Shown here: positions 25,767-38,345 of the stretch, one piece after another
How positions within the stretch are numbered: the first letter of the stretch is position 1
Layout: every line of letters starts with the position of its first letter
From: a virus
Taxonomy: Duplodnaviria > Caudoviricetes
Length of the DNA: 64,000 bases
IMG/VR virus record: IMGVR_UViG_2595698868_000001
Location: 32,001-96,000 of that record
Strand: one strand, 5' to 3'
Position numbers and translations under genes: made by a program
The notes under the pieces: model-generated
The model's database searches: none
Told to the model about the DNA's origin: nothing
What the model saw: the letters and a program-made list of their open reading frames with translations, nothing else

Positions 25767-26517
25767 GCACTCGGACACCGAGAACTCGCTGCCGAACCTT
25801 GTGCTGGGGCAGATCGCCGTCAACACCCATGACGAGGTGCTGTGGGTGCGTTCTGGTGGTCGACGTACGCCAATCCACTTGCCTTCGGTCCAACGAGCCA
25901 TGCCTTATGATGGGCAATCTGGCGCCCCACTCGTTTCGACGGGCAGCGGCTCGCAATGGGACCCACAACTGGCCCCTGTCGCGGTTGTGGATGATGCGAT
26001 CAAGGTTGACCTGCCGCCGGCGGCCGGCTTCATGGGCGTGCCCGGTGTCCAGATCAGTGGCCTTGGACCGGACCGAACCTTGCCCGTAAATTCCGTGCAG
26101 ATCGAGCCGTTTCAGGTTCGATCGGATCAGATCACGGTGACGTCCATGGCTTTCGCCGTGCGTACGGCCGGCGCAGGCGCGGTTCGTATGGGGATTTTCG
26201 ACGCGGACGACAATCGTCTCTTGAATCAGCTTTTCAGCACGCCCGCTCAAGGCGTTAACTCATTCAACTTCAACTTGGTCCTGCCCCGAGGGCACTATCG
26301 TGCTCAACTGTGGAATGCCACCGCCACGGACTTTGCGGTGGCAACCGGCATCCAGACGGATCAAGGCTGGCGGGTGGTTGGTTCGGATTTGCAGTTCGTG
26401 CGCAGCAGCGAAGGCTCCGTCAACCAGAGTAGCGGCTTGGTGCCGATCGCCGGCACGCCGCGTTTGTCCCTGGTGCCCGGCGTCGACAAGACGATGCTGA
26501 TGCGCTGGCATCTCTAA
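25750..26517 (+). CDS. virion protein
   Basis: LPNLVLGQIAVNTHDEVLW motif, same N-terminal module as the previous two genes. Confidence 0.7.
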   Translation: MSIQNKHSDTENSLPNLVLGQIAVNTHDEVLWVRSGGRRTPIHLPSVQRAMPYDGQSGAPLVSTGSGSQWDPQLAPVAVVDDAIKVDLPPAAGFMGVPGVQISGLGPDRTLPVNSVQIEPFQVRSDQITVTSMAFAVRTAGAGAVRMGIFDADDNRLLNQLFSTPAQGVNSFNFNLVLPRGHYRAQLWNATATDFAVATGIQTDQGWRVVGSDLQFVRSSEGSVNQSSGLVPIAGTPRLSLVPGVDKTMLMRWHL

Positions 26518-26522
26518 ACGAA

Positions 26523-26561
26523 AAACGCCGCCCCATGCGTGATCCTAGGGCGGCGTTTCTT
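26523..26561 (+). terminator. intrinsic terminator
   Basis: AAACGCCGCCCC...GGGGCGGCGTTTCTT. Confidence 0.7.
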
Positions 26562-26756
26562 CCGATTTGGGCTCCCTGTACGGCCGAGAACCTCGCCTGA
26601 GTTAATCACACCGTTGGCGCGTCCTTTCCTTCGTCTGTTGCGTTGATGTCGCCGATTGGTCGACGATCAAGACGTAGCCAGTGGGGCGCCGTCTGTCAAC
26701 TCTTGGCGCGCCGGTTTTCTTGACACTGTAGGTTGCTTCGGCTACCCTTCACGATC

Positions 26757-27038
26757 ATGTCTACTGAACGAGTCTATTCGCCGGATAACGAGCCGTTCGA
26801 CGTCACGCCGAACCGCGCCGCGTACCTGCGTCTGGAACGTGGTTGGACCAAGACTCCCTTCGAGCGCGTCGCTGTGCCTGAAGTGACCCCCGCGCCGGTG
26901 TTCGACGCGGATGCGGAAATCGAAATCGAACCCATCGCCGCGCCGGCTCCCGCGCGCGGGCGAGGTCGTCGGCGCCGGGCTGTAGAAGCCGTGCCGGCAG
27001 ACGTGATCGCTGATCACGACGAAAGCTGGCGTAGCTAG
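26757..27038 (+). CDS. small protein with RGRGRRRR motif
   Basis: MSTERVYSPDNEPFDV; architecture resembles 9961..10467. Confidence 0.65.
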   Translation: MSTERVYSPDNEPFDVTPNRAAYLRLERGWTKTPFERVAVPEVTPAPVFDADAEIEIEPIAAPAPARGRGRRRRAVEAVPADVIADHDESWRS

Positions 27039-27169
27039 TTCTACCGCGCTCGGCGCGCACCCTCACATCAAACCTGATCGTGTCGACGGTACCCTTGTGT
27101 CGTCTTTGGCTCAAGTATTCGTACTTCTGAGAGCGGAACTTTATTGCTTGTCGCACAGTAATAAGCCCT

Positions 27170-27220
27170 TGAAAATAAATAGAAAAAGATATTGACCGCA
27201 CACTTCGCAGTGTGTATAAG
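27170..27220 (+). promoter_or_regulatory. strong sigma70 promoter for tRNA Trp/Gly/Gly
   Basis: AT-rich UP element, TTGACC-17-TATAAG; spacer holds palindrome CACACT-TCGC-AGTGTG. Confidence 0.7.
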
Positions 27221-27239
27221 GTCTTCATCGAAAGTGAAT

Positions 27240-27325
27240 ACGGGAATTCCAGAGCGGTCAAATGGGCTGGTCTCCAAAACCAGCGGCGCAAGCCTTCGGG
27301 GGTTCGAATCCCTCTTCCCGTGCCA
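27240..27325 (+). tRNA. tRNA-Trp(CCA) with long variable arm
   Basis: ACGGGAA/TTCCCGT, ctggt-CTCCAAA-accag, V-arm GGCGCAAGCC, GGTTCGAATCC, encoded CCA. Confidence 0.85.
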
Positions 27326-27335
27326 CCTCTAATAC

Positions 27336-27412
27336 GCGTCTATAGTATATTGGTCTGATTACCCTTCGTTGCCAACGAAGAGAGGCGGGTTCGATTCCCG
27401 CTAGACGCTCCA
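27336..27412 (+). tRNA. tRNA-Gly(GCC)
   Basis: cloverleaf, U73, CCA. Confidence 0.9.
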
Positions 27413-27416
27413 ATTC

Positions 27417-27490
27417 GCGTCCGTAGCTCAATGGTAGAGCAATGGGCTTCCACCCCGTGGTCGTGGGTTCGATCCCCACCGGACGCTCCA
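27417..27490 (+). tRNA. tRNA-Gly(TCC)
   Basis: cloverleaf, U73, CCA. Confidence 0.92.
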
Positions 27491-27537
27491 GCTTTTCTTG
27501 CAAGCTGCCAGAAATCCTGTCACCATTCTTTCGTGAA

Positions 27538-27722
27538 CCGGGAAGCCCCTCTGTTCCTCTCTCCGCCCTGGCCGTGCGGATGACGTACATGCGCTCCCGC
27601 CTCTGCTCCCCGCGCCTGTCTTCGGACGGGAAGGCCATATGCCCACAAGGGCGCGCAGGAGTCGTGCGAAGAGGGCGTTGGCGCCGGGCCAGCAGGAGAA
27701 GGCGTTAGGAGCGTCACCCGGC
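27538..27722 (+). ncRNA. candidate ~185-nt rod-shaped ncRNA
   Basis: nested pairings CCGGG/CCCGG, TCTCC/GGAGA, CTGGCC/GGCCAG, CGCGCC/GGCGCG, UUCG loop; promoter-like motif upstream. Confidence 0.4.
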
Positions 27723-27746
27723 ATTTACATCGTTATGGAGCTAGGC

Positions 27747-27941
27747 ATGCACCCCTATTCGCCTCCCACCGATATCGGCCGCACGATCGCCGGCCACGAA
27801 GTCCATCACCTCACCGCTGACTGCCCTCGCAATCACTCGCGCCGCGCCGCCAAGAGGCTACGCCACGCGGCCCGTCAGTACGATCGCCAACTTATTTGTC
27901 AGGAGGTAGCCAATTTTCTTGACGCCTCCCTCGCGGCCTGA
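27747..27941 (+). CDS. small hypothetical protein
   Basis: GGAG SD; ends SLAA. Confidence 0.5.
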   Translation: MHPYSPPTDIGRTIAGHEVHHLTADCPRNHSRRAAKRLRHAARQYDRQLICQEVANFLDASLAA

Positions 27942-27956
27942 TACAAGCGCATCATT

Positions 27957-28022
27957 ATGACGTACCTGATGTCCCTTTACGAACGAGAGGCCCGCCTGGG
28001 CCGAGATACGACCGCCGCTTAA
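27957..28022 (+). CDS. putative leader peptide upstream of tRNA-Glu/Asp (MTYLMSLYEREARLGRDTTAA)
   Basis: ATG just after a TTGACG promoter; stop codon lies in the loop of a long hairpin. Confidence 0.4.
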   Translation: MTYLMSLYEREARLGRDTTAA

Positions 28023-28054
28023 TTGCGGCTTTCGTGTCGATGGCCCTTGCTTAT

Positions 28055-28133
28055 GGGGCCTTCGTCTAAACTGGACTAAGGATAGCCGGCTTTCACCCGG
28101 CAGATGCGGGTTCGAACCCCGTAGGCCCTTCCA
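28055..28133 (+). tRNA. tRNA-Glu(TTC)
   Basis: gccgg-CTTTCAC-ccggc, T-arm, CCA. Confidence 0.88.
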
Positions 28134-28148
28134 AGCCATCCTCACTCA

Positions 28149-28223
28149 GGTGCGTTCGTATATCGGTTAATACACCGGACTGTCGATCCGGGAAGACGGG
28201 TTCGACTCCCGTACGCACCGCCA
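28149..28223 (+). tRNA. tRNA-Asp(GTC)
   Basis: ccgga-CTGTCGA-tccgg, G73, CCA. Confidence 0.92.
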
Positions 28224-28236
28224 AGGTTTCGCTGAA

Positions 28237-28383
28237 ATGCCCCTGCAACAAGGCTCCAGCCAAGCAGTCGTTTCGCATAACATCGCCAAGCTGATCGCCG
28301 AGGGTCACTCTCACGATCAGGCTGTCGCCATCGCGCTCGCTCAGGCAAAGCGCAAGAAGTCGCGTAAGACGCGGCGCAAGTAG
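28237..28383 (+). CDS. small basic phage protein (MPLxxGxS..SxNI..LI.EG...QAVAIA family)
   Basis: MPLQQGSSQAVVSHNIAKLIAEGHSHDQAVAIALAQAKRKKSRKTRRK; below the ORF-track cutoff. Confidence 0.75.
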   Translation: MPLQQGSSQAVVSHNIAKLIAEGHSHDQAVAIALAQAKRKKSRKTRRK

Positions 28384-28501
28384 GATCAAGATGCCCGCCG
28401 GCTAACCTCTCTCCTGATGAACGATTTCCAGGAAGGAGGACCCCAAATGGTCTCTCTGTCAGAGCCTGCCTGCTTCTCTGGATCGTCCAGGAGGAGCCAG
28501 C

Positions 28502-28699
28502 ATGGCCCACAATATCCAGCGCGCGAAGCGCATGCTGTCGCTGTCGAACGCGGCACTTCTTCAGGTCATCGCGGGCAAGACGCTCGCGTCGGCCTCCGCC
28601 CGCTTTGAATTGAAGCGTCGCGGCTACGAAGCCGTCCTCACCAAGAAGGGAGGATGGCACTTGGCCCCCATCACTCCCCACAACGAGCCGGCGCTTTAG
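28502..28699 (+). CDS. hypothetical protein
   Basis: AGGAGGAG SD, 65 aa. Confidence 0.6.
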   Translation: MAHNIQRAKRMLSLSNAALLQVIAGKTLASASARFELKRRGYEAVLTKKGGWHLAPITPHNEPAL

Positions 28700-28898
28700 C
28701 GCCGGCTCTTGAGATCACGCCGCCCCGATGGCGTGACCCCGAGCACGCGCCCGATCGCGTGCGGATCGCGCCTGGAAGCCCCCGCCCAGGCGCAAGCGCG
28801 GTGCCCGTCCACCGCGTCCCCGTTTTGGAGTGGTCAAGCTCCAAACGATTGCGTCCCTTCTTGACTATGTTCGGCGGCCGACATAACGTCGTTCGTAA

Positions 28899-29048
28899 TG
28901 CGGCTGCGCTTCGGCGCGGGCTAAAGGCAGTTCTGGGGGAAGACGGCCCTCGACGTCTTCGGGCGTCTTGCTAGTCGTCTGGACAAACGGGCTGGTGAGG
29001 GGGCGACCGCACTCGACCTCTCCGGTGAGTGACCACCCACAAGTCGCA
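28899..29048 (+). ncRNA. candidate ~150-nt multibranched ncRNA
   Basis: closing helix TGCGGCT/AGTCGCA, two cUUCGg hairpins, TTGACT promoter at 28861. Confidence 0.45.
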
Positions 29049-29263
29049 GGTTCAATTTTCTACTTGCACCGTTCGCGCGGCGTAGCTAGAAGATCGACGT
29101 GGGCCGCCGGGGAGCGGCCTGTCGTGGTTTCGGCCACACAAAGCCCCACCCGGCTCTCCCTACGAATTTTTCTTTGACAGTATTCTTGACACCCGTCTCG
29201 AACTGTGAGAGAAGCAAATCCTCAACGGGCCACAGCGCCCACGTTTTCGCCTTGGATCAGAAG

Positions 29264-29383
29264 ATGACCTTCTCGACGCATAAGCCGAGCACTTTGAAGC
29301 CCGCCACCGGCGCGGCCTCGCTCGCCCATGCGTCCCTTCTGACGCCGGCGACGAGCAAGCCGTCGCTATCACGGTCGCTCTAG
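29264..29383 (+). CDS. putative leader/attenuator peptide of tRNA operon 1 (MTFSTHKPSTLKPATGAASLAHASLLTPATSKPSLSRSL)
   Basis: 35 of 38 internal residues are T/S/H/K/P/L/A, the amino acids of the downstream tRNAs; TTGACA promoter at 29186. Confidence 0.75.
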   Translation: MTFSTHKPSTLKPATGAASLAHASLLTPATSKPSLSRSL

Positions 29384-29498
29384 GACTCCAGTAGTCCTCT
29401 TCAGAAGCGGCCGGATCACCGCCGCTTCTGCTCTCCACGCTTACACCCCAAAGCACAGCAGACGCGGCCCCTCCAACTCGGGGTTCGTTAACCATCAT

Positions 29499-29576
29499 CT
29501 GCGTGTAGCTCAGTCTGGTTAGAGCGCTCGGTCCGGAGCCGAGGGGTCGTAGGTTCAAATCCTGCTACGCAGACCA
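29499..29576 (+). tRNA. tRNA-Pro(CGG), C33/A37
   Basis: C1-G72, A73; loop TCCGGAG. Confidence 0.85.
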
Positions 29577-29583
29577 AATCAGT

Positions 29584-29658
29584 CAGAGTCTGGCCGAGCG
29601 GCTAGGCACCGGTTTTGGGAACCGGACGAGGCGGGTTCAACTCCTGCGGCTCTGACCA
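29584..29658 (+). tRNA. tRNA-Pro(TGG)
   Basis: loop TTTGGGA, C1-G72, A73. Confidence 0.9.
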
Positions 29659-29659
29659 T

Positions 29660-29736
29660 CAGTGTGTGGCGCAGTTTGGTAGCGCGCTTGCTCGGGATGC
29701 AAGAGGTCGCAGGTTCAAATCCTGCTACACTGACCA
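29660..29736 (+). tRNA. tRNA-Pro(GGG), C33/A37
   Basis: cttgc-TCGGGAT-gcaag. Confidence 0.85.
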
Positions 29737-29742
29737 GTTTAA

Positions 29743-29815
29743 GCTGTCGCGTGTGGATTCACGCCGGCCCCTTGGTATGGGGCAGTAGAAGGTTCAATTC
29801 CTTCCGGCAGCACCA
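29743..29815 (+). tRNA. tRNA-Thr(GGT), atypical short D-arm
   Basis: GCTGTCG/CGGCAGC, gcccc-TTGGTAT-ggggc, CCA. Confidence 0.75.
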
Positions 29816-29820
29816 AGTTC

Positions 29821-29890
29821 GCCGATGCTTCAGGGAAGAAGTGTCTTTCGTAGTGACGCCAGGAGGGTTCGAGTCCTTCCATCGGCACCA
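29821..29890 (+). tRNA. tRNA-Thr(CGT), truncated D-arm (70 nt)
   Basis: GCCGATG/CATCGGC, loop TTCGTAG, T-arm, CCA. Confidence 0.7.
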
Positions 29891-29931
29891 GTTTTAATTC
29901 TTGATCCGAGGAGATCAAATGTAGACAAAAT

Positions 29932-30012
29932 GGATCGTGAGCTTAATTCCGGGTGGCCGGGACCGTCCTCTTAAGTCGAGAGCAAGTGGTTCGACTCCAC
30001 CACGATCCTCCA
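29932..30012 (+). tRNA. atypical tRNA-Lys(CTT)-like gene
   Basis: GGATCGT/ACGATCC acceptor, CTCTTAA loop with weak stem, rearranged D region, CCA. Confidence 0.55.
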
Positions 30013-30018
30013 AAACAT

Positions 30019-30108
30019 GGGTGAGTTCTCCGAGCGGTCGAAGGGGAGTGACTCTTAATCACTTGGACGAAAGTCCCACCGTGGGTTCGAATCCCACCTC
30101 ACCCTCCA
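30019..30108 (+). tRNA. tRNA-Lys(CTT) with long variable arm
   Basis: agtga-CTCTTAA-tcact, V-arm GGAC-GAAA-GTCC. Confidence 0.85.
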
Positions 30109-30114
30109 ATTTAT

Positions 30115-30202
30115 CCCGGTGTGACGAAGTTTGGTAGACGTGCGAGTTTCAGATACTCGTGTCCGAGAGGGCGGGGAGGTTCGAATCCTCTCACCGGGAC
30201 CA
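30115..30202 (+). tRNA. tRNA-Leu(CAG), A37
   Basis: class II cloverleaf, loop TTCAGAT. Confidence 0.9.
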
Positions 30203-30209
30203 AATTAAT

Positions 30210-30296
30210 GCCCAACTGGTCGGAATGGCAGACGCAGGATACTCAAAATATCCGGACCGCAAGGTCGTCCCGGTTCAAGTCCGGGGTTGGGCACCA
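30210..30296 (+). tRNA. tRNA-Leu(CAA)
   Basis: class II cloverleaf, loop CTCAAAA. Confidence 0.92.
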
Positions 30297-30303
30297 AGTT
30301 TAA

Positions 30304-30391
30304 CGCAGCGTGGCGGAGTCTGGTAGACGCGCCATCTTGAGAGGGTGGTGTCCGAAAGGGCGGGGAGGTTCGAATCCTCTCGCTGCGACCA
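30304..30391 (+). tRNA. tRNA-Leu(GAG), A37
   Basis: class II cloverleaf, loop TTGAGAG. Confidence 0.9.
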
Positions 30392-30399
30392 AGTTCTGA

Positions 30400-30474
30400 T
30401 CTGGTGTAGTCGAGTGGTTAAGACGCCGCATTGTGGATGCGGAGGCTCTGGTTCAATCCCAGGCACCAGTACCA
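30400..30474 (+). tRNA. tRNA-His(GTG), alphaproteobacterial type (no G-1, U72/A73)
   Basis: ccgca-TTGTGGA-tgcgg; 3' end CACCAGT-A-CCA. Confidence 0.88.
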
Positions 30475-30478
30475 ATAC

Positions 30479-30553
30479 GGGGATGTAGCTCAGGGGTAGA
30501 GCGGCTGTTTTGCAAGCAGCGGGTCGGGGGTTCGAATCCCTCCATCTCCACCA
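30479..30553 (+). tRNA. tRNA-Ala(TGC)
   Basis: G3.U70, canonical. Confidence 0.92.
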
Positions 30554-30558
30554 ACAAC

Positions 30559-30631
30559 GGGGTATGCGCAGGGTCCGCAGGCATCCTTTGCAAGGAAGCT
30601 GAGGTGGGTTCGAGTCCCACATACTCCACCA
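30559..30631 (+). tRNA. tRNA-Ala(TGC), atypical D-arm
   Basis: G3.U70 retained, TTTGCAA loop, reduced D-arm. Confidence 0.75.
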
Positions 30632-30632
30632 C

Positions 30633-30722
30633 GGATGGTGAACCGGTCAGGCGCGCCGGGGCGGTTTCGAAAGCCGAGCGGACCTTCACGGGTTTGGGGA
30701 TCATGCCCTCCGCCATCCGCCA
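30633..30722 (+). tRNA. (8/4) tRNA-Ser(CGA)
   Basis: 8-bp acceptor GGATGGTG/CGCCATCC, 4-bp T-stem, loop ATCATGC, V-arm. Confidence 0.85.
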
Positions 30723-30726
30723 ACAT

Positions 30727-30816
30727 GGAGAGCGAACCGGACAGCCGCGCCGGGACCGATTGGAAATCGCGTCGGACCTTCACGGGTCTGGGGATGGTGT
30801 CCTCCGTTCTCCGCCA
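30727..30816 (+). tRNA. (8/4) tRNA-Ser(GGA)
   Basis: GGAGAGCG/CGTTCTCC, T-loop ATGGTGT. Confidence 0.85.
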
Positions 30817-30820
30817 ACAA

Positions 30821-30908
30821 GGATGTATGGCTGAGAGGCTGAAAGCGCCCGTCTTGAAAACGGGTCGACCGCAAGGTCGCGGGAGTTCGAATCTCTCTAC
30901 ATCCGCCA
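30821..30908 (+). tRNA. tRNA-Ser(TGA)
   Basis: canonical class II, G73. Confidence 0.92.
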
Positions 30909-30979
30909 AATGAGGGTCACGACCTCTCTCGCCTGTCGTGAGCAAATTCAGGGAGGATCGCCCTGGAGCCCGTGTAATT

Positions 30980-31067
30980 GGAGAACAAATCGGCCGGCGG
31001 CCGAGACCGATTGCTAATCGAGTCGGACCTTCACGGGTCTGGGGATGGTGCCCTCTGTTCTCCGCCA
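30980..31067 (+). tRNA. (8/4) tRNA-Ser(GCT)
   Basis: GGAGAACA/TGTTCTCC, T-loop ATGGTGC. Confidence 0.85.
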
Positions 31068-31096
31068 TATTCAACCGCGAGCAAGGGAGCCGCAAC

Positions 31097-31318
31097 ATGA
31101 CGACGATGACGCAATGCCGACTGGAACGCAATGGCGCGGTCCAAGTCGCCTGGATCGAGTCGAAGTTCGCTAAGCCGACGAAGGTCGTCAAGATCAAGGT
31201 CGACGGCGAATGGGAAGACGGGTGGGTGGTCGCCAAGACCGGCACGACCCTACCGGCCGAAACGGTCCAGAAGCGCGAGCGGGACTTCAAGTCACACCGC
31301 CGCGCCACCGACGTGTAA
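31097..31318 (+). CDS. hypothetical protein
   Basis: GGGAG SD; MTTMTQCRL...AWIE.KFAK. Confidence 0.75.
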   Translation: MTTMTQCRLERNGAVQVAWIESKFAKPTKVVKIKVDGEWEDGWVVAKTGTTLPAETVQKRERDFKSHRRATDV

Positions 31319-31321
31319 GGG

Positions 31322-31356
31322 AAACGCCCCGGTTGCGAGACCGGGGCGTTCTTTTG
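31322..31356. terminator. bidirectional intrinsic terminator ending tRNA operon 1
   Basis: AACGCCCCGGT-TGCGAG-ACCGGGGCGTT followed by CTTTT. Confidence 0.85.
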
Positions 31357-31809
31357 TTAGGCCGTCACGCCGTCAGTAGCGGCGATGACCAGCCATTGAG
31401 TACCGGTCCAGCGCAGGATCACCATCGTGGGCGGCGTAGGCACATGCGCGCCCACCACTCCGAGCGGATTGAATGGTAGGAAAGTCAATTCCTGGTACTG
31501 CTGCGCGTTCCATTGGAACGGCTTGCCCGGCGCCGTCTCCGCCAGATTGAGCGTTTCTGAAAGCGCTCGCAACTTGAACGTGGCTCGATTGGCGGTGTTC
31601 GTGCCAGATTCGAACTGAGACGGCAGCGGCAGTAGACGGACGACAATCTCGTCACCGGGCGATTCGCCCGGCGCGAGCCAGCCGTACAGCGTGACGTCGC
31701 TGTTATGCTCCAGGCGGATATCCACCTGACGCTCGTCGTTGCGGTTGATCACCGGGGCCACGGCGTAATTGGTCGCGGCCTGCGGAATTGAGATCAAGGT
31801 AGCAGACAT
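31357..31809 (-). CDS. hypothetical protein
   Basis: AAGGA SD, start MSATLISIPQ within the longer ORF. Confidence 0.65.
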   Translation of the reverse strand: MSATLISIPQAATNYAVAPVINRNDERQVDIRLEHNSDVTLYGWLAPGESPGDEIVVRLLPLPSQFESGTNTANRATFKLRALSETLNLAETAPGKPFQWNAQQYQELTFLPFNPLGVVGAHVPTPPTMVILRWTGTQWLVIAATDGVTA

Positions 31810-31929
31810 ATGGTATTCCTTGGTTTGATGGAACCAGACAACGTCGTCCGGCTCAGCTTGTGTAGCGAACATAACCGGAACATGCAAGACCAGAATGGAC
31901 AGAAATTCTGGCGACGCTAAACTGCGCCC

Positions 31930-32565
31930 ATGACTTACCCGATCGCGCCGACCGCCTTTCCTGAGAACCCGTTCAACCCGGCATGGGTAGCTCGCGATTT
32001 CTTCTACTCCCAGGATGGGATTGGCGAGCATCCTGAACACGCTTGCAAGCGCACCTTCGAGAAGTCCGCGCCGTTCATCTCCGGCGTCCGCAACGCCATC
32101 GACATTGGCTGCCGTGACGGCGAATACAGCCGTTACTTGCAGACTCGGTTCACGCACGTTTATGGCTTCGATCCGCGCCGGCGCGAGTACCTGCCGTTCA
32201 ACGTCGATCTCGGGCGCATGACGCACTTCCTCTGTGCGCTGGGCGATGAGCCCGGTACGATCAAGATGTCTGGAGGTACGCACAATCCGCATGGCCGGAA
32301 GCAGCACTACGCCCCGTGCTTCACCCTCGACAGCTTCAATCTCCAGGATATCGACTACGTCAAGATCGACGTCGAAGGATTCGAGAAGAAGGTACTGATT
32401 GGCGGTTGGGTAACGATTGAGCGTTGCCGGCCGATGATCGTCATCGAGCAAAACGATGTCGTGCTACCGGGGGCCTCGCGCTACGAGGCGCGCGATTGGC
32501 TGGAGCAGCGGGGCTATAGCGTCGCCGCGATCAGCAAGGATGACCTGATCATGGTTCCGCAATAA
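31930..32565 (+). CDS. FkbM family methyltransferase
   Basis: AIDIGC, TLDSF, VKIDVEGFE, RPMIVIE motifs. Confidence 0.9.
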   Translation: MTYPIAPTAFPENPFNPAWVARDFFYSQDGIGEHPEHACKRTFEKSAPFISGVRNAIDIGCRDGEYSRYLQTRFTHVYGFDPRRREYLPFNVDLGRMTHFLCALGDEPGTIKMSGGTHNPHGRKQHYAPCFTLDSFNLQDIDYVKIDVEGFEKKVLIGGWVTIERCRPMIVIEQNDVVLPGASRYEARDWLEQRGYSVAAISKDDLIMVPQ

Positions 32566-32578
32566 CGAGGAGACTTAC

Positions 32579-32809
32579 ATGACCGACGACCAAATCAAGC
32601 ACATGACCGACCGCTTTCTAGGCTGGAAGCTGCCGGCCAACTTCCAACCCGACGCCGGGATCAGCTTCCAGCCCGAGTACAATGTCGAGTTCATGGCGAG
32701 CCAGGGCAAGCCGCCCATGCGTCATGAGCCGGTCGGCACCAACCTGTTCAGCGCCGAGCAGGCCCAGGCGATGATCCGCCACATGCTGGAAGGCCTGCCG
32801 GCCTATTAA
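32579..32809 (+). CDS. hypothetical protein
   Basis: GAGGAG SD; RFLGWKLP.NF.PD.GISF...P.GTNL. Confidence 0.8.
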   Translation: MTDDQIKHMTDRFLGWKLPANFQPDAGISFQPEYNVEFMASQGKPPMRHEPVGTNLFSAEQAQAMIRHMLEGLPAY

Positions 32810-33060
32810 CAGTGTTGACAGGGCTGGCGCCACATGCCAGTAATCCTGTCAGCCAATAGACCCCCTGACGGCGTTCGAGCGATGCGAAGCTCCCGGCATG
32901 CACCGGGCTCCCACAGCATCGTCCCGCCCTCCTGGGGATGCGGCTTCGAGCAGTTTCGTCTGGCCCATCTCACAAAAAGGTGCCCGACGGGGTTGGTGGA
33001 TCACCCGATGCGTACGCGCATCTGAAAACCACCACGAGTTCGCCGGTTCGCCGGCCTTAT

Positions 33061-33186
33061 ACGGGTGAAGCTCTAGGGTTGTCTCGGTGTAGCGCTGCAC
33101 CGGGCCTTAGGTGGGGAGCGCTTCCCATCATGGAGTGCCGGGTCGTTAACCCGGAGGCGGGGGTTCGAGTCCCTCCACCCGTTCCA
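33061..33186 (+). tRNA. tRNA-Asn(GTT)-like RNA with ~50-nt structured D-loop insertion
   Basis: ACGGGTG/CACCCGT, D-stem GCTC/GAGT, ccggg-TCGTTAA-cccgg, GGTTCGAGTCC, CCA. Confidence 0.7.
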
Positions 33187-33310
33187 ATCATAGGTGGGCC
33201 AGCGGAGAATTTCATCCGTTCGCTGGATCAAGAAAAGGGACGCCGGGGTCTTGCCGGCTACCGAGGGCGCGGCAACTGAACCGCCTACCCCACCGCCTCC
33301 CGGAGCTTCC

Positions 33311-34072
33311 ATGCGCATCCTGGTCTTGAGCGATCTGCACCTCGAATTTGGAGCCATGGATCGCAATTGGGAGCCGCCCGAATGCGACGCGGTGATCCTG
33401 GCCGGCGACATCGCCACCGGCGTCGTCGGCGTCATGTGGGCCAAGACGATTCGGGCTCCCGTCTTCTACGTGCCGGGCAACCACGAATTCTACGGCAAGC
33501 GGCGCTATCATCGCCACATGGAGAAGCTGCACGCCAAGGCGGAGGACTCCAATGTCGCCGTCATGCAGAACCGCATCATCCAGGGCGAGATCGCCGGCGA
33601 GAAGGTCCGTATCCTGGGCGCCACTATGTGGACCGACTTTGGGCTGCACGGGACCGAGCATCTTTCCCAGGTCGCCGCCCAGCGCGAGATGAACGACTAC
33701 AAGCAGATCAGGCTCGATCACAGCAAGATGCTGACGGCCGACGACACGCGCAGCCTGCATCTGGAATCTCGTTATTGGCTGAGCGAGCAACTGCGCCAGC
33801 CGTTCGACGGCAAGACGATCGTCATCACCCACCACGCCCCGTCGGAGCAGTCAATCCCTCCGCGTTATCGTGGCGATGCGCTGTCGCCGGCCTATGCCGC
33901 GCGCCTGGAGAACCTGATCTGCAACTACGAGCCCACGCTGTGGGTTCACGGGCACATTCACGACAGCCTGGACTACCGCATCTGCGGGACGCGCATCGTC
34001 TGCAACCCACGCGGCTATAAGGGCCACGAACTCAACAAGAACTTCGATCCGCATCTGGTGGTGGAGATTTAA
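33311..34072 (+). CDS. calcineurin-like metallophosphoesterase
   Basis: SDLHLE, LAGDI, GNHE, THHAP, HGHIH motifs. Confidence 0.92.
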   Translation: MRILVLSDLHLEFGAMDRNWEPPECDAVILAGDIATGVVGVMWAKTIRAPVFYVPGNHEFYGKRRYHRHMEKLHAKAEDSNVAVMQNRIIQGEIAGEKVRILGATMWTDFGLHGTEHLSQVAAQREMNDYKQIRLDHSKMLTADDTRSLHLESRYWLSEQLRQPFDGKTIVITHHAPSEQSIPPRYRGDALSPAYAARLENLICNYEPTLWVHGHIHDSLDYRICGTRIVCNPRGYKGHELNKNFDPHLVVEI

Positions 34073-34074
34073 CG

Positions 34075-34347
34075 ATGAAGGTATGGCGCGTGCTGGGCGG
34101 CGAGGTCAAAGACCTCCAGGCTCCTCAGCCCAAGACGGTCAACGAGTGCGTCGCGCTCTTTCGCGATCAGGCGACCGTTGAGTGGACGGGCGACTACGAG
34201 GATGCGAAGGCGGCCAAGGACGCCTGGAAGGCCCGCGCCCAGCAGACCGTAGACAACGCCCTCATGCGTTTCTTCATCATCGAGATGGACGTCGAGGTTA
34301 TGACGCCGCCGGAGTACGTCGCGCGCCTCCAGGAGCAGCACGCCTAA
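34075..34347 (+). CDS. DUF4170-like alphaproteobacterial protein
   Basis: VLGGEVKD ... AWKARAQQTVDNALMRFFI. Confidence 0.7.
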   Translation: MKVWRVLGGEVKDLQAPQPKTVNECVALFRDQATVEWTGDYEDAKAAKDAWKARAQQTVDNALMRFFIIEMDVEVMTPPEYVARLQEQHA

Positions 34348-34868
34348 TGGCTTACCGCCAAATCATCCCCATCACCGATCCTCTCCTGAGCAAACCTTCC
34401 GTCCCGATCGAACTGATCGACGGTGAAGTACCGCAAGCGATCCTCGATCTCGCCGGCGACATGCTGGAGACCTGCCGGGCCATCAACGGCGCCGGGCTCG
34501 CCGCAGTCCAGGTGGGCGAGCCGGTCCGCATGTTCGTGATGGACCTCGCCCAGATCAACGGCCCGACCATGATCTTCATCAACCCCGAGATCATCTTGCG
34601 CTCGGGCGAGACGATCGAGATGCTTGAGGGTTGCCTGTCGATGCCCGGCATCGGATTCACCCTGGAACGCGCCGCGTCCGTAACGGTCCGCTATACCGCG
34701 ATCGACGGCGAGGAGAAGACCTACGACGCCGGCGGCTACGCGGCGATCTGCTGTCAGCATGAAATCGACCACCTGGACGGCGTTAGGCATATTGACCACT
34801 TGTCGAAGCTGAAGCGTTCGCGCTACATGTCCAAGTTCAAGAGCATGCTGAAAGCACGCTCTGGTTAA
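34347..34868 (+). CDS. def: peptide deformylase
   Basis: GAGLAAVQ, EGCLS, QHEIDHLDG motifs. Confidence 0.95.
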   Translation: MAYRQIIPITDPLLSKPSVPIELIDGEVPQAILDLAGDMLETCRAINGAGLAAVQVGEPVRMFVMDLAQINGPTMIFINPEIILRSGETIEMLEGCLSMPGIGFTLERAASVTVRYTAIDGEEKTYDAGGYAAICCQHEIDHLDGVRHIDHLSKLKRSRYMSKFKSMLKARSG

Positions 34869-34892
34869 TTTAACTCTCTGCCTGGAGTCCAC

Positions 34893-36092
34893 ATGTCCCA
34901 CTTCGCCCTCGTGGTCGTGACGACCACCAACTCGAAAGATCAACTCAAAGAGGTGCTTCAGCCCTTCCACGAGTTCGAGTGTACCGGCATCAGCGATCAA
35001 TATGTTGTCGAGGTCGATGACACCGACGAGAAGCGCGCGTCGTACGAGACCGCGAAACGTCGCCGTTACCGTTCGCCGGACGGAGCCCTGCACGATCCGT
35101 ACGACAACATCTACTTCCGCGATCTCACGGCTGATGAACTCAAGCAGGCCGGTACCGAGAAATTCGCCCGCATCCCAGGCCTGTTCATCCACGACCAGGA
35201 CTGGAATGACGGGCGTGGATATCGCTCGAAGGTTCACTTCGTGCCGACGGGCTGGGAAGATGTCGAAGTTCCCGTCAAGGAGTTCTCCTCGCTCCGCGAC
35301 TACATCGCCGACGAAACGGATCGCAAGGTCATCGTTCAAGGCGGGCTGCCTGACTACGACGATCAGCACAAGCATGGTTACACGATCGTCGACGCCAAGG
35401 GTGAGGTCGTGAAGACGGTGCGTCGCACCAACCCGAACGCCAAGTGGGATTGGTGGGAGATCGGCGGTCGGTATCGCGGGCGTCTTCTGTCCAAGGGCGT
35501 CTTCGGTTACCAAGGTCGGCCGGGCACCTTCAATAACGACACCTACCACCAGGGCGGCAGCGACGGCCTGCTCAAGGGCGAGATCGACTTCGAGCGCATG
35601 CGCAGGCTGAACGTCGAGAAGCACCTGGGTTTGGTGGAGGAGGCGTACGCCAAGATGGGCGACGTGTCCCGCGAAGAAGTCAAGGCGCTCTGCATCGAAT
35701 ACGCTGACCTTTTCAACAAGGTCATGCGGCCGAAGTTCGCCGCGATCGACGCCGGCACCTGGAAGGACGGCAACGTCTGGGAAAAGGCGAACGCCGAAAG
35801 TCCGCGCTTCGAGGAACTCGGCAAGCTCCTCGACCCCTTCTACGACTACTTCAACGGCGCCGGCTTCGATCGTGACATCGGCGATCCCTGGGCCTGGGCG
35901 GAGGCCATCCCGCCGCTGACCGCTTACGCCTACCTGGGTACCGATGGTGTCTGGCGCGCCTCGGGCGAGATGGGCTGGTTTGGCATTTCGTCCAAGGAAA
36001 AGGACTCGGGCGAATGGAATCGCGAGTTCGCCAAGGCCCTCGCTGCCGTGCCGGATCACCACATGATCTGGGTGGTCGACTGCCACATCTGA
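34893..36092 (+). CDS. conserved phage hypothetical protein
   Basis: MSHF..V, NPNAKWDWWEIGGR, GEMGWFG, VVDCHI family pattern. Confidence 0.85.
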   Translation: MSHFALVVVTTTNSKDQLKEVLQPFHEFECTGISDQYVVEVDDTDEKRASYETAKRRRYRSPDGALHDPYDNIYFRDLTADELKQAGTEKFARIPGLFIHDQDWNDGRGYRSKVHFVPTGWEDVEVPVKEFSSLRDYIADETDRKVIVQGGLPDYDDQHKHGYTIVDAKGEVVKTVRRTNPNAKWDWWEIGGRYRGRLLSKGVFGYQGRPGTFNNDTYHQGGSDGLLKGEIDFERMRRLNVEKHLGLVEEAYAKMGDVSREEVKALCIEYADLFNKVMRPKFAAIDAGTWKDGNVWEKANAESPRFEELGKLLDPFYDYFNGAGFDRDIGDPWAWAEAIPPLTAYAYLGTDGVWRASGEMGWFGISSKEKDSGEWNREFAKALAAVPDHHMIWVVDCHI

Positions 36093-36147
36093 AAAAAGTT
36101 TGCCGGAATAGTTGACACGTTTCGGCAAGTGTGAGACACACAATCCC

Positions 36148-36243
36148 ATGATGACCTATCGCAACAACGTGCGCCAAATTCGAGTTCGCCAGTTTAACTT
36201 GGCGGGCCGTTCGCACGTGGGCGATGGAGGCAGCGAGGGTTAA
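36148..36243 (+). CDS. putative leader/attenuator peptide of tRNA operon 2 (MMTYRNNVRQIRVRQFNLAGRSHVGDGGSEG)
   Basis: codons 4-17 are all Y/R/N/V/Q/I/F, matching the downstream tRNAs; TTGACA at 36112; probably leaderless. Confidence 0.8.
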   Translation: MMTYRNNVRQIRVRQFNLAGRSHVGDGGSEG

Positions 36244-36273
36244 GCCCTCAGGCACCATCAAACAGATCGAGCG

Positions 36274-36311
36274 AAGGCCCGCCAGGAACCCCTGGCGGGC
36301 CTTTTCTTTTT
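36274..36311 (+). terminator. attenuator terminator between leader ORF and tRNA operon 2
   Basis: AAGGCCCGCCAGG-AACC-CCTGGCGGGCCTT plus T-tract; 5' arm complementary to 36199-36214. Confidence 0.88.
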
Positions 36312-36364
36312 CCACTTTCCGATCCGAGGAGATCGTCATGAACAACGGCGGGTAACCGCCTTCT

Positions 36365-36450
36365 GGGTAGGCATCGGGCACGAGTGAGCCCAACCGACTG
36401 TAAATCGGCCGCGAAAGCTGTGAGGGTGCGAATTCCCTCCCTGCCCTCCA
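36365..36450 (+). tRNA. atypical tRNA-Tyr(GTA)
   Basis: CTGTAAA loop, V-arm, odd D-arm, T-loop TGCGAAT, U73. Confidence 0.75.
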
Positions 36451-36451
36451 T

Positions 36452-36526
36452 CCCCATGTAGCTGAGACAGAGTAGCGCCAGAGTGAAATCCTGGAGACGG
36501 AGGTGCGAGCACTCTCGTGGGGGCCA
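36452..36526 (+). tRNA. tRNA-Phe(GAA), atypical T-arm
   Basis: CCCCATG/CGTGGGG, loop GTGAAAT, T-loop TGCGAGC. Confidence 0.75.
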
Positions 36527-36534
36527 TTTTCAGT

Positions 36535-36609
36535 GGCAGGTTAGTTCAGAGGTAGAACGCCGCTATGACATGGCGGATGTCGGGGGTTCAATTCCCTCAC
36601 CTGCTACCA
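36535..36609 (+). tRNA. tRNA-Val(GAC)
   Basis: ccgct-ATGACAT-ggcgg. Confidence 0.9.
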
Positions 36610-36610
36610 T

Positions 36611-36686
36611 CCTAGTGTAGCTCAGTTGGTAGAGCAGCGGATCGATAATCCGCCGGTCGCCGGTTCGATCCCGGCCGCTAGGTCCA
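36611..36686 (+). tRNA. tRNA-Ile(GAT), C33
   Basis: gcgga-TCGATAA-tccgc. Confidence 0.87.
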
Positions 36687-36694
36687 GTTTCTGA

Positions 36695-36770
36695 TGGGGC
36701 ATAGCTCAGGGGTTAGAGCGCGCGCTTGATAAGCGTGAGGCCGTTGGTTCGAGACCAACTGTCCCTACCA
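36695..36770 (+). tRNA. tRNA-Ile(GAT)
   Basis: cgcgc-TTGATAA-gcgtg. Confidence 0.9.
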
Positions 36771-36804
36771 AACAAAGGCCGGCGCGGAGATGCGCGCCGC
36801 CTAA

Positions 36805-36880
36805 CGCGAACGGGCCAGATGGGACGGCAGGGGTGTCACATACCTCGATTGACTGTGTTCGATTCACAGGTTCGCGACCA
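36805..36880 (+). tRNA. tRNA-Val(CAC)
   Basis: CGCGAAC/GTTCGCG, loop GTCACAT. Confidence 0.82.
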
Positions 36881-36887
36881 AGTTTCT

Positions 36888-36961
36888 TGGGGGATCGTCT
36901 AATGGTAGGACGGTAGAGTCTGGTTCTACAGATATAGGTTCGAGTCCTATTCCCCCATCCA
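36888..36961 (+). tRNA. tRNA-Gln(CTG)
   Basis: U1-A72, loop GTCTGGT. Confidence 0.9.
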
Positions 36962-36967
36962 AGTTGT

Positions 36968-37041
36968 TCTCGGGTGGTCTAATGGTAGGACATCTGGTTT
37001 TGGTCCAGAGGGTTGGGGTTCGATTCCTTGGCCGAGAGCCA
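36968..37041 (+). tRNA. tRNA-Gln(TTG)
   Basis: U1-A72, loop TTTTGGT. Confidence 0.9.
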
Positions 37042-37053
37042 ACTTGTTCTTGA

Positions 37054-37142
37054 TCTCATGTGGCGGAACTGGTAAACGCACCGGACTGTTAATCCGGCGT
37101 CTCGCAAGAGACTTGGGGGTTCGAAGCCCTCCGTGAGAGCCA
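37054..37142 (+). tRNA. tRNA-Asn(GTT) with long variable arm
   Basis: ccgga-CTGTTAA-tccgg, V-arm GTCTC-GCAA-GAGAC, G73. Confidence 0.85.
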
Positions 37143-37171
37143 ATATGTCGCAGCTTCGGCTGCGGCGAAAT

Positions 37172-37255
37172 GCCCTGGTAACCCGGCGCGCACTACGAAT
37201 GCGCGAGCCGTAGCTGGAGTTGAAAAGGCTGGTTCGAATCCAGCCCAGGGCGCCA
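37172..37255 (+). tRNA. D-armless tRNA-Arg(ACG)-like gene
   Basis: GCCCTGG/CCAGGGC, cgcgca-CTACGAA-tgcgcg, 8-nt linker instead of a D-arm, long variable region. Confidence 0.65.
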
Positions 37256-37259
37256 ACAT

Positions 37260-37337
37260 AGCGATGTAGCTCAGTGGATTTAGAGCGTTCCCCTACGAAG
37301 GGAAGGGTCGGGGGTTCGAGTCCCTCCATCGCTGCCA
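37260..37337 (+). tRNA. tRNA-Arg(ACG)
   Basis: canonical cloverleaf. Confidence 0.92.
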
Positions 37338-37342
37338 ACCTC

Positions 37343-37425
37343 AGCGTACAGGCCGAGCAGGATTATCGTCAGGCGCCGCCCTCCGAAGGCGGAGAGGCCC
37401 GGTTCGAGTCCGGGGTACGCTGCCA
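37343..37425 (+). tRNA. tRNA-Arg(CCG), A37, enlarged D-loop
   Basis: ccgcc-CTCCGAA-ggcgg. Confidence 0.85.
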
Positions 37426-37865
37426 GACATTGAGAGTTGACAGGCATTTTTAGGCAGCCTATATCCTCTCAAGTGAATTCCAAGCCCGCACCGGGATCGC
37501 TCAGGCGATAAGGCGGGCCTGGGCCTCCTGATCGTCAAGCAGAGCCCCCGCGTGGTCCCGGTCCGCGCGGGGGCTTTGTGATTCGGGCTTATCCTGAGTC
37601 AAGGTATTTATAGTTGACAGACAAGTGCCAGGAATCTTGACTCTCCAGGTCGATTCTACTACCGTGCGCTGCATCAACAACGCGTAGCTACCGTCGGGGA
37701 CGAAGGCTGTGTCGGATAACGACAAGGGCCAAACGGTGACCCCCGAGGCCCAAGCTGAAAACCAGGGACAGCAGCGTTTCTACGCGCTGCTTAACGAACT
37801 TCGGGCAGCACTGCGCCGTCCGTCGACGGAGGCTCATACACCCAACCTGGATGTCGAGACCGATC

Positions 37866-38345
37866 ATGGCTAACCAACCGAATGGAGCAGCGCAGGCCGA
37901 TCGCGTGCGGGAGATCGAGATGCGTCTTTGGGAAGAGGTGGGCACCCAACTCAAGGGTGTCACGGAAGCTATGAAGGAACTCGCGCTCGAAATGCGCGAT
38001 GTTCGTGAACGCCTCATTCGTATCGAGGCCCAGGATCAGCCCAAGAAGCTGGCGAGCCTGGAAGAAGACCTGCGCGAGACGCAAGACGAGATTGCGCGCG
38101 TCGAAAAGGACGCAGCGGACGATCTGGCCCGCGCCACGGCGGTCCATCATCAGGAAATCGGCCTGATCAAGTCCCAGGCCACGGCCGACATTGCCCGCGT
38201 CGAGAAGACTGCGGCCGACGACAAGCTTGCGCTCGAAAAGCGCCTTACCCGCATGGAGATGATCATCGCGCCGCTGACCTGCGCCGGCGGCGCCCTGCTG
38301 GCGACGATCATCACGATCTTGGTTCAGAAGTTCACGGGAAGCTAA
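37866..38345 (+). CDS. coiled-coil protein with C-terminal TM helix
   Basis: heptad-rich body, IIAPLTCAGGALLATIITILV. Confidence 0.75.
   Translation: MANQPNGAAQADRVREIEMRLWEEVGTQLKGVTEAMKELALEMRDVRERLIRIEAQDQPKKLASLEEDLRETQDEIARVEKDAADDLARATAVHHQEIGLIKSQATADIARVEKTAADDKLALEKRLTRMEMIIAPLTCAGGALLATIITILVQKFTGS

Follow-up and report, generated by a model that had tools for sequence, protein, structure and literature searches.

Leader-peptide attenuation is known for amino-acid and synthetase operons, and tRNA genes are controlled at their promoters by stringent and growth-rate control. Among the multivalent leader-peptide attenuators are those of his with six pairing segments, thr with Thr and Ile codons, and ilvGMEDA with codons for Ile, Leu and Val. 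In E. coli the pheM leader attenuates pheST, encoding phenylalanyl-tRNA synthetase, and leader open reading frames (ORFs) acting on Rho-dependent terminators are known from mgtA (mgtL) and mgtCBR (mgtP) in Salmonella and from tna (tnaC) in E. coli. T-box leaders (Rfam family RF00230) bind uncharged tRNA directly and contain no ORF. Here we describe an element upstream of a tRNA operon of a giant Caulobacter phage in a stretch of 64,000 bases, called the window in the following, which comprises bases 32001-96000 of a 279,967-base virus record with a G+C content of about 60-65%. Positions refer to the window and all features of the element lie on the plus strand. We consider it likely that 29186-29498 is the leader of a ribosome-mediated transcription attenuator controlling this phage tRNA operon, and that it belongs to a family occurring in phiCbK-type, Colossus-type and Brevundimonas phages.

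The centre of the element is a leader ORF of 39 codons plus TAG (29264-29383), which starts with ATG 29264, ends with TAG 29381-29383 and encodes MTFSTHKPSTLKPATGAASLAHASLLTPATSKPSLSRSL. Its internal residues are S8, T6, L6, A6, P4, K3 and H2 together with one F, G and R, so that 35 of 38 belong to the seven amino acids P, T, K, L, H, A and S, which the tRNA genes downstream serve; our recount agrees with the number given in an earlier reading of the letters alone (below, the sequence-only reading). The probability of this composition, a check which that reading had proposed, was computed against the genome: the seven residues make up 0.41 of all residues in 217 crude long ORFs, so that the binomial P is 6e-11. 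With 0.92 of its residues in the set, as compared to 0.80 for the next one, the leader ORF is at the top of the 802 ATG ORFs in all frames which are 30-60 amino acids long, and of 559,708 stretches of 38 codons in the six frames of the 280-kb genome it alone reaches 35 or more.

It could be argued that the ORF arose by chance within a structured, untranslated 5' leader and that its composition merely reflects the bases, as 22 of 40 codons carry C at position 2 and 21 carry G at position 3, which yields NCG codons. The ribosome-binding site is weak, and the frame is open upstream to GTG 29099, which is common in DNA of 62% GC. The other five frames of the same DNA, however, have only 0.28-0.56 of their residues in the set, and base composition alone is thus insufficient to explain the bias. 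The extension to GTG 29099 contains the promoter described below and is not conserved in the closest named record, Caulobacter phage CcrPW (Colossusvirus; 92.4% identity at 92% coverage over 28600-31100), which makes ATG 29264 the conserved start. With the first rank in the six-frame scan, the start, stop and whole-codon length changes kept in 14 of 14 records despite unalignable DNA, and the excess of substitutions within the set (see below), a chance ORF is already disfavoured and can hardly be the explanation. An off-frame artefact, in which the +2 frame would resemble a GC-rich coding frame, was considered separately and rejected: the +2 frame contains a stop but lacks a start, and the artefact fails as a full explanation since the leader ORF still ranks first in the six-frame scan of the genome.

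The operon downstream, tRNA operon 1 (29499-31067, plus strand), comprises three genes for Pro, two for Thr, two for Lys, three for Leu, one for His, two for Ala and four for Ser. The count of 17 genes for seven amino acids in the sequence-only reading holds, with the caveat that seven of them are non-canonical: at default settings ARAGORN called ten tRNA genes (29499-30908), and the others require Rfam or relaxed thresholds. The tRNA-Thr genes GGT (29743-29812) and CGT (29820-29889) were missed by default ARAGORN and score 30 bits with the Rfam tRNA model and 21.4 bits, i.e., below the Rfam cut-off of 29, respectively. The tRNA-Ser genes CGA, GGA and GCT (30633-30722, 30727-30816 and 30980-31067) were called by ARAGORN only at relaxed settings. 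An Ala-like gene is located at 30559-30631, and its counterpart in CcrPW is annotated as tRNA-Ala. A Lys-like gene (29932-30008) is weak, with 16.7 bits on the Rfam tRNA-Sec model only. The homologous operon of the relatives serves the same seven amino acids.

Some of these genes have unusual shapes. D arms are reduced in both tRNA-Thr genes, and T loops are unusual in the three tRNA-Ser-like genes CGA, GGA and GCT. The 'tRNA-Lys' genes with anticodon CTT (30019-30108 and 29932-30008) comprise 77-90 bases and are characterised by a long variable arm; this class II shape is that of Leu, Ser and Tyr tRNAs and not that of bacterial tRNA-Lys. ARAGORN calls the gene at 30019-30108 a tRNA-Lys, and relatives possess CTT and TTT versions of 87-91 bases.

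Upstream of the leader ORF a promoter-like element, TTGACA-N12-TGTGAGAG, is located at 29186-29211; its TTGACA lies at 29186-29191 as previously noted, and a second TTGACA copy is found at 29174-29179. The motif TTGAC[AG]-N10-14-TGTGA[GT]A occurs at exactly two sites of the 280-kb genome, at 29186 and at 36113, in both cases in the form TTGACA-N12-TGTGAGA, and the second copy precedes another leader (leader 2, see below). The element is identical to CcrPW in 37 of 38 bases, and TTGACA-N12-TGTGAGAG is kept in the leaders of the phiCbK type. A generic sigma-70 scan called no promoter at 29186. It is the double occurrence in the genome and the conservation that point to a promoter role of 29186-29211. 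The ORF starts 53 bases past the element, and the variable 5' untranslated spacer between them (29212-29263) is the least conserved segment of the unit, with 41 of 52 bases identical to CcrPW and an additional insertion of 25 bases. In contigs of X3 and X4, two of four sequencing runs (X1-X4) whose contigs represent Colossus-type variants, 29198-29253 is skipped or replaced.

A scan of IMG/VR with the promoter pattern yielded at least 118 stretches; among the matches listed, six had tRNA genes within 900 bases downstream, two of which (L096 and L102) are relatives whose leaders are identical to those of BL10 and Rogue. In three apparently unrelated viral contigs (L021, L076 and L079) TTGACA-N12-TGTGAGAG occurs exactly, 43-159 bases upstream of tRNA clusters; at the fourth motif locus (L052) the nearest tRNAs are encoded on the opposite strand. 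The occurrence before tRNA clusters in these three contigs could be due to chance among at least 118 matches or could represent a recurrent type of phage tRNA promoter. Further upstream, GCAGGTTCAA within 28990-29070 is similar to the T arm found in the tRNA-Pro genes. In CcrPW the sequence of 28990-29070 is conserved as far as a deletion of 111 bases, and it may be a remnant of a tRNA gene.

For the comparison of orthologous leaders the homologous region was taken from 13 named phages and the ORF upstream of the first tRNA-Pro was extracted; together with the window, the set comprised 14 records (CcrPW, BL10, Rogue, phiCbK, Karma, RBC57, Ccr10, BL57, Gurke, Bambus, Kabachok, Domovoi and Bajun). 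In the phiCbK-type Caulobacter phages and the Brevundimonas phages the DNA match to 28600-31100 starts only at the first tRNA gene, and leader DNA is unalignable outside CcrPW, which was also the sole match of the leader in a blastn search against 50,697 phage records. A pattern of hairpin 1 (see below) gave no match in metagenome contigs, a peptide pattern detected a single locus in IMG/VR, a 308,141-bp contig with a leader of the CcrPW type, and a degenerate ORF pattern found 120 stretches, none with a tRNA nearby. All 14 records nevertheless contain an ORF of 39-48 codons which ends 112-116 bases before the first tRNA-Pro (115 in the window). The peptide of the window aligns over its full length with those of the phiCbK type, encoded by gp335-like small coding sequences (CDSs) upstream of tRNA-Pro, and with those of the Brevundimonas type, position and flanks being the same. 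Orthologous peptides are, e.g., MFALSHNSLSTKAASPASLSLAPLATATKPSTKPTTSASHSTDHL in phiCbK, (V)TKLSHKLSLHSTAASALSTLAYAPATLSPKSPTTGGVTSATETI in Gurke and (V)TTLSHKLSLKSAPSALLSLAHAPATLKSTPATVASTSETFS in Bajun. Outside CcrPW they are 27-49% identical to that of the window (phiCbK type 27-33%, Brevundimonas type 44-49%), and 35-44 of 38-47 residues belong to the seven-residue set, with 28-30 of the first 30 codons in every phage. The bias is kept in all 14 records, in which the tRNAs are retained as well; loss of the bias next to retained tRNAs, the outcome that the sequence-only reading had named as contrary to it, was not found.

ORF lengths differ by whole codons (39, 42, 43, 44, 45 and 48), and the flanks carry indels of one and 25 bases. 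Of the variable codon columns in the phiCbK type, two are synonymous only, 11 change within the set and two leave it; the respective numbers for the Brevundimonas type are four, 19 and seven. If one base of an in-set codon is changed at random and the change is non-synonymous, the new residue belongs to the set with a probability of 0.47; under this null model, the 30 of 39 changing columns which remain in the set correspond to P = 1.3e-4 and the 24 of 26 below alignment column 35 to P = 1.3e-6. These values are approximate, as the null model presupposes that only single bases change and that low-complexity peptides have been aligned reliably. Residues outside the set cluster in the last 10 or so codons, i.e., in the part pairing as segment 0 (see below). 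According to these counts the peptide drifts almost freely while its alphabet is held. A sensor ORF undergoing translation accounts for this pattern better than a folded peptide does, and better than an RNA without translation.

The leader ORF is annotated as a hypothetical protein in BL10, Rogue, phiCbK, Karma, RBC57, Ccr10, BL57 and Bajun (the count stated is 9 of 13). It is unannotated in CcrPW, Gurke, Bambus, Kabachok and Domovoi, and in Kabachok a CDS is annotated on the minus strand instead. These annotations, the five close clusters, the only ones that a protein database search with the phiCbK leader peptide returned, and a few invariant columns (H6, A14, A17, L20, A21, P28 and T30) would fit a small functional protein rich in Ser, Thr, Ala and Leu, whose composition and position before tRNA genes are incidental. 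The same database search gave no Pfam domain for this peptide, however, and the columns with amino-acid changes number 39 as compared to six with synonymous changes only, yet they remain confined to the set of the downstream tRNAs, which is atypical for a folded or binding peptide. Moreover, the ORF lies between promoter and terminator with its 3' end complementary to the next hairpin, and a sister ORF before the other operon uses a non-overlapping set which matches that operon. Taken together, we regard a small functional protein as quite improbable.

Directly before tRNA-Pro, 12 of the 14 records have a GC-rich hairpin with a T run behind it, the window and CcrPW being the exceptions. The stems of ten measured records have −18 to −20 kcal/mol with seven to eight U in the next ten bases; the terminators of Gurke and Bajun were read from the sequence and folded apart from these ten. 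A rho-independent terminator before tRNA-Pro is also annotated in the records of phiCbK and Karma. Where the orthologues have their intrinsic terminator, the window has retained the hairpin without the U tract: a GC hairpin plus U tract is present in the family as a whole and absent from the window. By alignment of the flanks, the T run of the window appears to be shortened to TTCGTT and now paired inside the stem. CcrPW has a U-less hairpin as well, with a stem that is weakened further.

Several mutually exclusive pairings are predicted for the RNA of the window. The unconstrained minimum-energy fold contains a helix of 13 pairs between segment 0, the 3' end of the ORF (29368-29381), and the 5' arm of hairpin 1 (29403-29416; local −22.8 kcal/mol), and a helix of 11 pairs between 29421-29432, i.e., the 3' arm of hairpin 1, and segment 3 (29457-29468; local −20.5 kcal/mol), its antiterminator partner, which overlaps the 5' arm of hairpin 3:4. 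A small hairpin AGGACU/AGUCCU of six pairs (29382-29398), which begins within the stop codon, forms the tip of the 0:1 helix and might serve as a pause site. If the ORF end (29366-29392) is masked as it would be by a ribosome having reached the stop codon, hairpin 1 (29402-29430, segments 1 and 2) forms with 12 pairs and −20.0 kcal/mol from the arms 29402-29414 and 29419-29430, together with hairpin 3:4 (29461-29489), which has ten pairs including G-U, arms 29461-29471 and 29480-29489, −11.9 to −12.9 kcal/mol and the tail AACCAUCAU and is the positional homologue of the relatives' terminator without U tract. In silico, the alternatives 0:1 plus 2:3 and 1:2 plus 3:4 share segments, each middle segment taking part in two pairings. 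Hairpin 1 is identical in CcrPW, and a hairpin of other sequence is found at the same place in all relatives.

The sequence-only reading had described hairpin 1 with 10 bp and proposed 29332-29342 within the ORF as the alternative partner of its 5' arm. The hairpin is real and longer; the proposed partner can indeed pair (duplex −14.2), although more weakly than the ORF end at 29368-29381 (13 pairs, −17.2). The observation that no U tract but a C-rich, G-poor stretch follows hairpin 1 was borne out, and a U tract is likewise absent after hairpin 3:4. This spacer (29431-29458; C13 G3 A8 T4; C/G ratio 2.3 over the 68 bases 29431-29498) is single-stranded in the fold with the ribosome at the stop codon and is otherwise enclosed by the 2:3 helix.

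In each of the 14 leaders the masked position was moved codon by codon, and the folding probability of the terminator stem, or of 3:4, was recorded. In the window, the pairing probability of hairpin 3:4 is 0.0-0.3, except for 0.6 at codon 16, as long as the A site is located at codons 1-33, and 0.7-0.9 at codons 34-40. Generally, the probability is low with the A site upstream and reaches 0.7-1.0 only within about the last 7-12 codons, a switch which is evident in ten of 14 leaders (window, CcrPW, BL10, Rogue, phiCbK, Karma, RBC57, Ccr10, BL57 and Bambus). The codons at which stalling is predicted to favour read-through, up to about codon 33, coincide with the in-set part of the ORF, and the relaxed tail coincides with segment 0. 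The sensing part would be formed by about codons 2-33 (29267-29362). A terminator probability as low as the observed one was obtained after shuffling the ORF in 3 of 60 trials for phiCbK and 4 of 60 for Kabachok. With the uneven folds and the shuffle controls given below, the structural argument is good for the family and only suggestive for the member in the window.

From these elements the following course of regulation can be envisaged. The dedicated promoter would start a transcript led by the short ORF, which is written in the codons for those seven amino acids that the operon serves. When these codons are read fast, the ribosome at the ORF end would cover segment 0, 1:2 and then 3:4 would form, and transcription would end before tRNA-Pro. 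If a matching charged tRNA is scarce, the ribosome would lag, 0:1 and 2:3 would pair, the last hairpin would be blocked and RNA polymerase would enter the tRNA genes. The net effect would be a negative feedback on tRNA supply.

For the window and CcrPW, the output step may be weakly intrinsic, Rho-dependent, as the sequence-only reading had suggested, or lost. A 3:4 hairpin without U tract would leave either a weak intrinsic terminator or Rho acting on the exposed C-rich spacer. Loading sites of Rho typically comprise about 60-80 bases, as compared to which the exposed C-rich stretch of about 28-68 bases is short. As the spacer is predicted to be single-stranded when translation is fast and enclosed when it stalls, control would act in the same direction as in the relatives.

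Loss would mean that the mechanism of the family is real but that the terminator decayed in the lineage of Colossus and CcrPW, the operon being read through constitutively and the ORF and hairpins persisting through recency or another role of the RNA, e.g., in processing or stability. The hairpin homologous to the terminator indeed lacks the U tract and has −12 instead of −18 to −20 kcal/mol, the stem of CcrPW carries a further weakening change, and the shuffle control of the window is not significant (15/60). On the other hand, the lineage is deeply diverged (27-49% peptide identity, unalignable DNA) and yet has 35 of 38 residues in the set, an intact frame and all four pairings. The leader ORF is identical to that of CcrPW in 119 of 120 bases, the single change (Ser4 to Leu) remaining in the set, as compared to 1456 of 1564 bases of the tRNA operon and 107 of 114 bases of the leader behind the ORF; at the mismatch rate of the operon, one change or less in 120 bases has P = 0.002. 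Among the differences listed for X3 and X4, the ORF has five substitutions, which comprise a synonymous change of Lys, Pro8 to Val and Leu11 to Pro, but no indel, while the 5' spacer is replaced. ORF and hairpins therefore look maintained in the lineage lacking the U tract, which argues against a mere relic, and we consider such a decay unlikely.

A second leader of the same kind lies in the same genome. The motif copy at 36113 precedes the ORF 36148-36243 (MMTYRNNVRQIRVRQFN...), and a canonical terminator (36273-36304) is located between this ORF and an operon for Phe, Val, Ile, Gln, Asn and Arg. Its stretch YRNNVRQIRVRQFN is the sole one among 559,852 stretches of 14 codons which consists wholly of F, V, I, Q, N, R and Y; with the set F, V, I, Q, N and R, defined a priori, three stretches reach 13 of 14, namely two overlapping ones at leader 2 and a poly-Arg. 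Downstream, relaxed ARAGORN found genes for Phe, Val, Ile, Gln, Asn, Ala (cgc) and Arg, the gene labelled cgc being called Arg (acg) at default settings; no tRNA-Tyr was found there by ARAGORN. The amino-acid sets of leader 1, the leader described above, and leader 2 do not overlap, in agreement with the sequence-only reading. Both share the rare promoter motif and an ORF matched to its own operon. They differ in that leader 2 starts about 10 bases past the promoter element and has a canonical terminator, whereas in leader 1 a 5' spacer of about 50 bases precedes the ORF and the U tract is missing. Two compositions unique in the genome, each behind the same rare promoter and before a matching operon, are very unlikely to occur by chance.

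Other sites of the region were noted in addition. A third leader is proposed at 27957-28022 before tRNA-Glu and tRNA-Asp, encoding MTYLMSLYEREARLGRDTTAA with a hairpin and T run at 28014-28029 (site 27957-28046); the argument from composition is weak in this case, as only three of 21 codons are Glu or Asp codons. In the Karma record a terminator is annotated directly before tRNA-Glu (L125 1087-1133). Between tRNA-Asp and the leader, CcrPW carries two genes on the minus strand (L002 1616-2964), encoding a hypothetical protein and a methyltransferase, both of which are absent from the window (compared over 28224-29150).

A number of points speak against the interpretation as an attenuator. A terminator scan found none in 29175-29499, although canonical ones were called at 31323 and 36273, and hairpin 3:4 of the window, with about −12 kcal/mol and the tail AACCAUCAU, is not canonical. 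The claim that the match of leader codons extends to isoacceptors was only partly upheld: by standard wobble, anticodons of operon 1 can read 31 of 38 codons, and seven (TTC, three GCC, GGC, CTA and CGG) lack an operon anticodon. The Shine-Dalgarno sequence (GAAG before ATG 29264) is weak. No RNA sequencing run contains the leader stretch; among sequencing runs, none has half or more of the sampled leader words, and the best are DNA contigs with at most 0.42 of them. The orthologues are homologous, so their composition is partly inherited, and the substitution null is an approximation, as stated above. Identity with CcrPW is patchy, the neighbouring block of Thr, Thr and Lys tRNA genes being identical in 279 of 281 bases, so that the conservation of the ORF could also result from a recent (mosaic) exchange. 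Kabachok and Domovoi show only a weak switch, that of Gurke is irregular, and Bajun has none; with shuffled ORFs, the terminator probability was as low as the observed one in 15 of 60 trials when the window was used and in 21 of 60 when Gurke was used, and equilibrium folds are a crude stand-in for co-transcriptional folding. Finally, without a ribosome the fold model predicts read-through, unlike trp.

On balance, the core of the sequence-only reading, a codon-matched leader ORF with attenuator-like logic, finds its decisive support in the comparison with the orthologues, and further support in the terminators of 12 of 14 records, the alternative pairings and the common promoter motif. A wider proposition, for and against which we would wager equally, is that phages of this subfamily run a tRNA-supply homeostat in which a separate multivalent leader peptide, made up of exactly the amino acids of the operon behind it, gates each tRNA operon, and that the output in Colossus moved to factor-dependent termination. 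A tRNA set would then be transcribed only when ribosomes slow on its codons, e.g., upon decay of host tRNAs or cleavage by anticodon nucleases, and in the Colossus lineage the intrinsic terminator would have been replaced by a U-less hairpin and a C-rich spacer.

If the attenuator is real, a direct feedback from the speed at which a set of codons is translated to the transcription of the matching tRNAs would be found here for the first time; phages would regulate tRNAs by demand instead of merely adding them, and this would bear on how phage tRNAs counter host defences that target tRNAs. The question of phage tRNAs versus such defences is a current one according to PMC12409363. A full-text search, whose coverage does not extend to the descriptions of CcrPW and CcrBL10, returned no description of leader-peptide control of tRNA genes. 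The main text of PMC3556154 on the genomics of these phages contains neither 'attenuat' nor 'leader'; the small gene may be included in its supplementary tables S1 and S6. With two or three leaders per genome whose codon sets do not overlap, and with one lineage whose terminator differs, the family represents a natural experiment, and dozens of sequenced phages of the family infect a well-developed model host. For annotation the findings are a warning, as most records list the leader ORFs as hypothetical proteins and other records omit them.

Comparison with the known systems allows a more precise placement of the element. A T-box would share the sensing of tRNA status, as proposed for the phage leader, and a terminator/antiterminator switch over read-through. 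The identity as a T-box riboswitch was ruled out, however, as 26500-38000 gave no match to the T-box covariance model; the Rfam scan of this region (E ≤ 1) found no T-box and, in 28731-29498, no non-tRNA family. With pheST the phage leader would share the leader-peptide attenuation of a component of the translation apparatus in response to charged tRNA; it differs in that pheST concerns a synthetase, a single amino acid and a cellular system. The attenuators of his, thr and ilvGMEDA likewise have a short ORF between promoter and first gene which is rich in the codons to be sensed. They also sense several amino acids per leader and have a chain of exclusive hairpins, both of which are predicted for the phage family, where the chain would end in a GC hairpin with U tract in 12 of 14 members. 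The sharing of middle segments between two alternative pairings, a trait of classical attenuators, is predicted for the leader of the window as well. These attenuators control biosynthetic enzymes, whereas the phage-borne leader precedes tRNA genes and interleaves seven amino acids over about 30 codons in place of a short run. With segment 1 located downstream of the stop codon, the phage leader further requires a segment 0 within the ORF, in contrast to his, thr and ilvGMEDA, and the terminator of the window lacks their U tract. With mgtL, mgtP and tnaC the window would have in common that translation of a short ORF exposes a C-rich stretch through alternative RNA structures. By analogy, theirs would be the only known scheme to fit the U-less hairpin and the C13/G3 spacer of the window, with the differences that the C-rich stretch comprises about 28-68 bases and that the phage orthologues use an intrinsic terminator.

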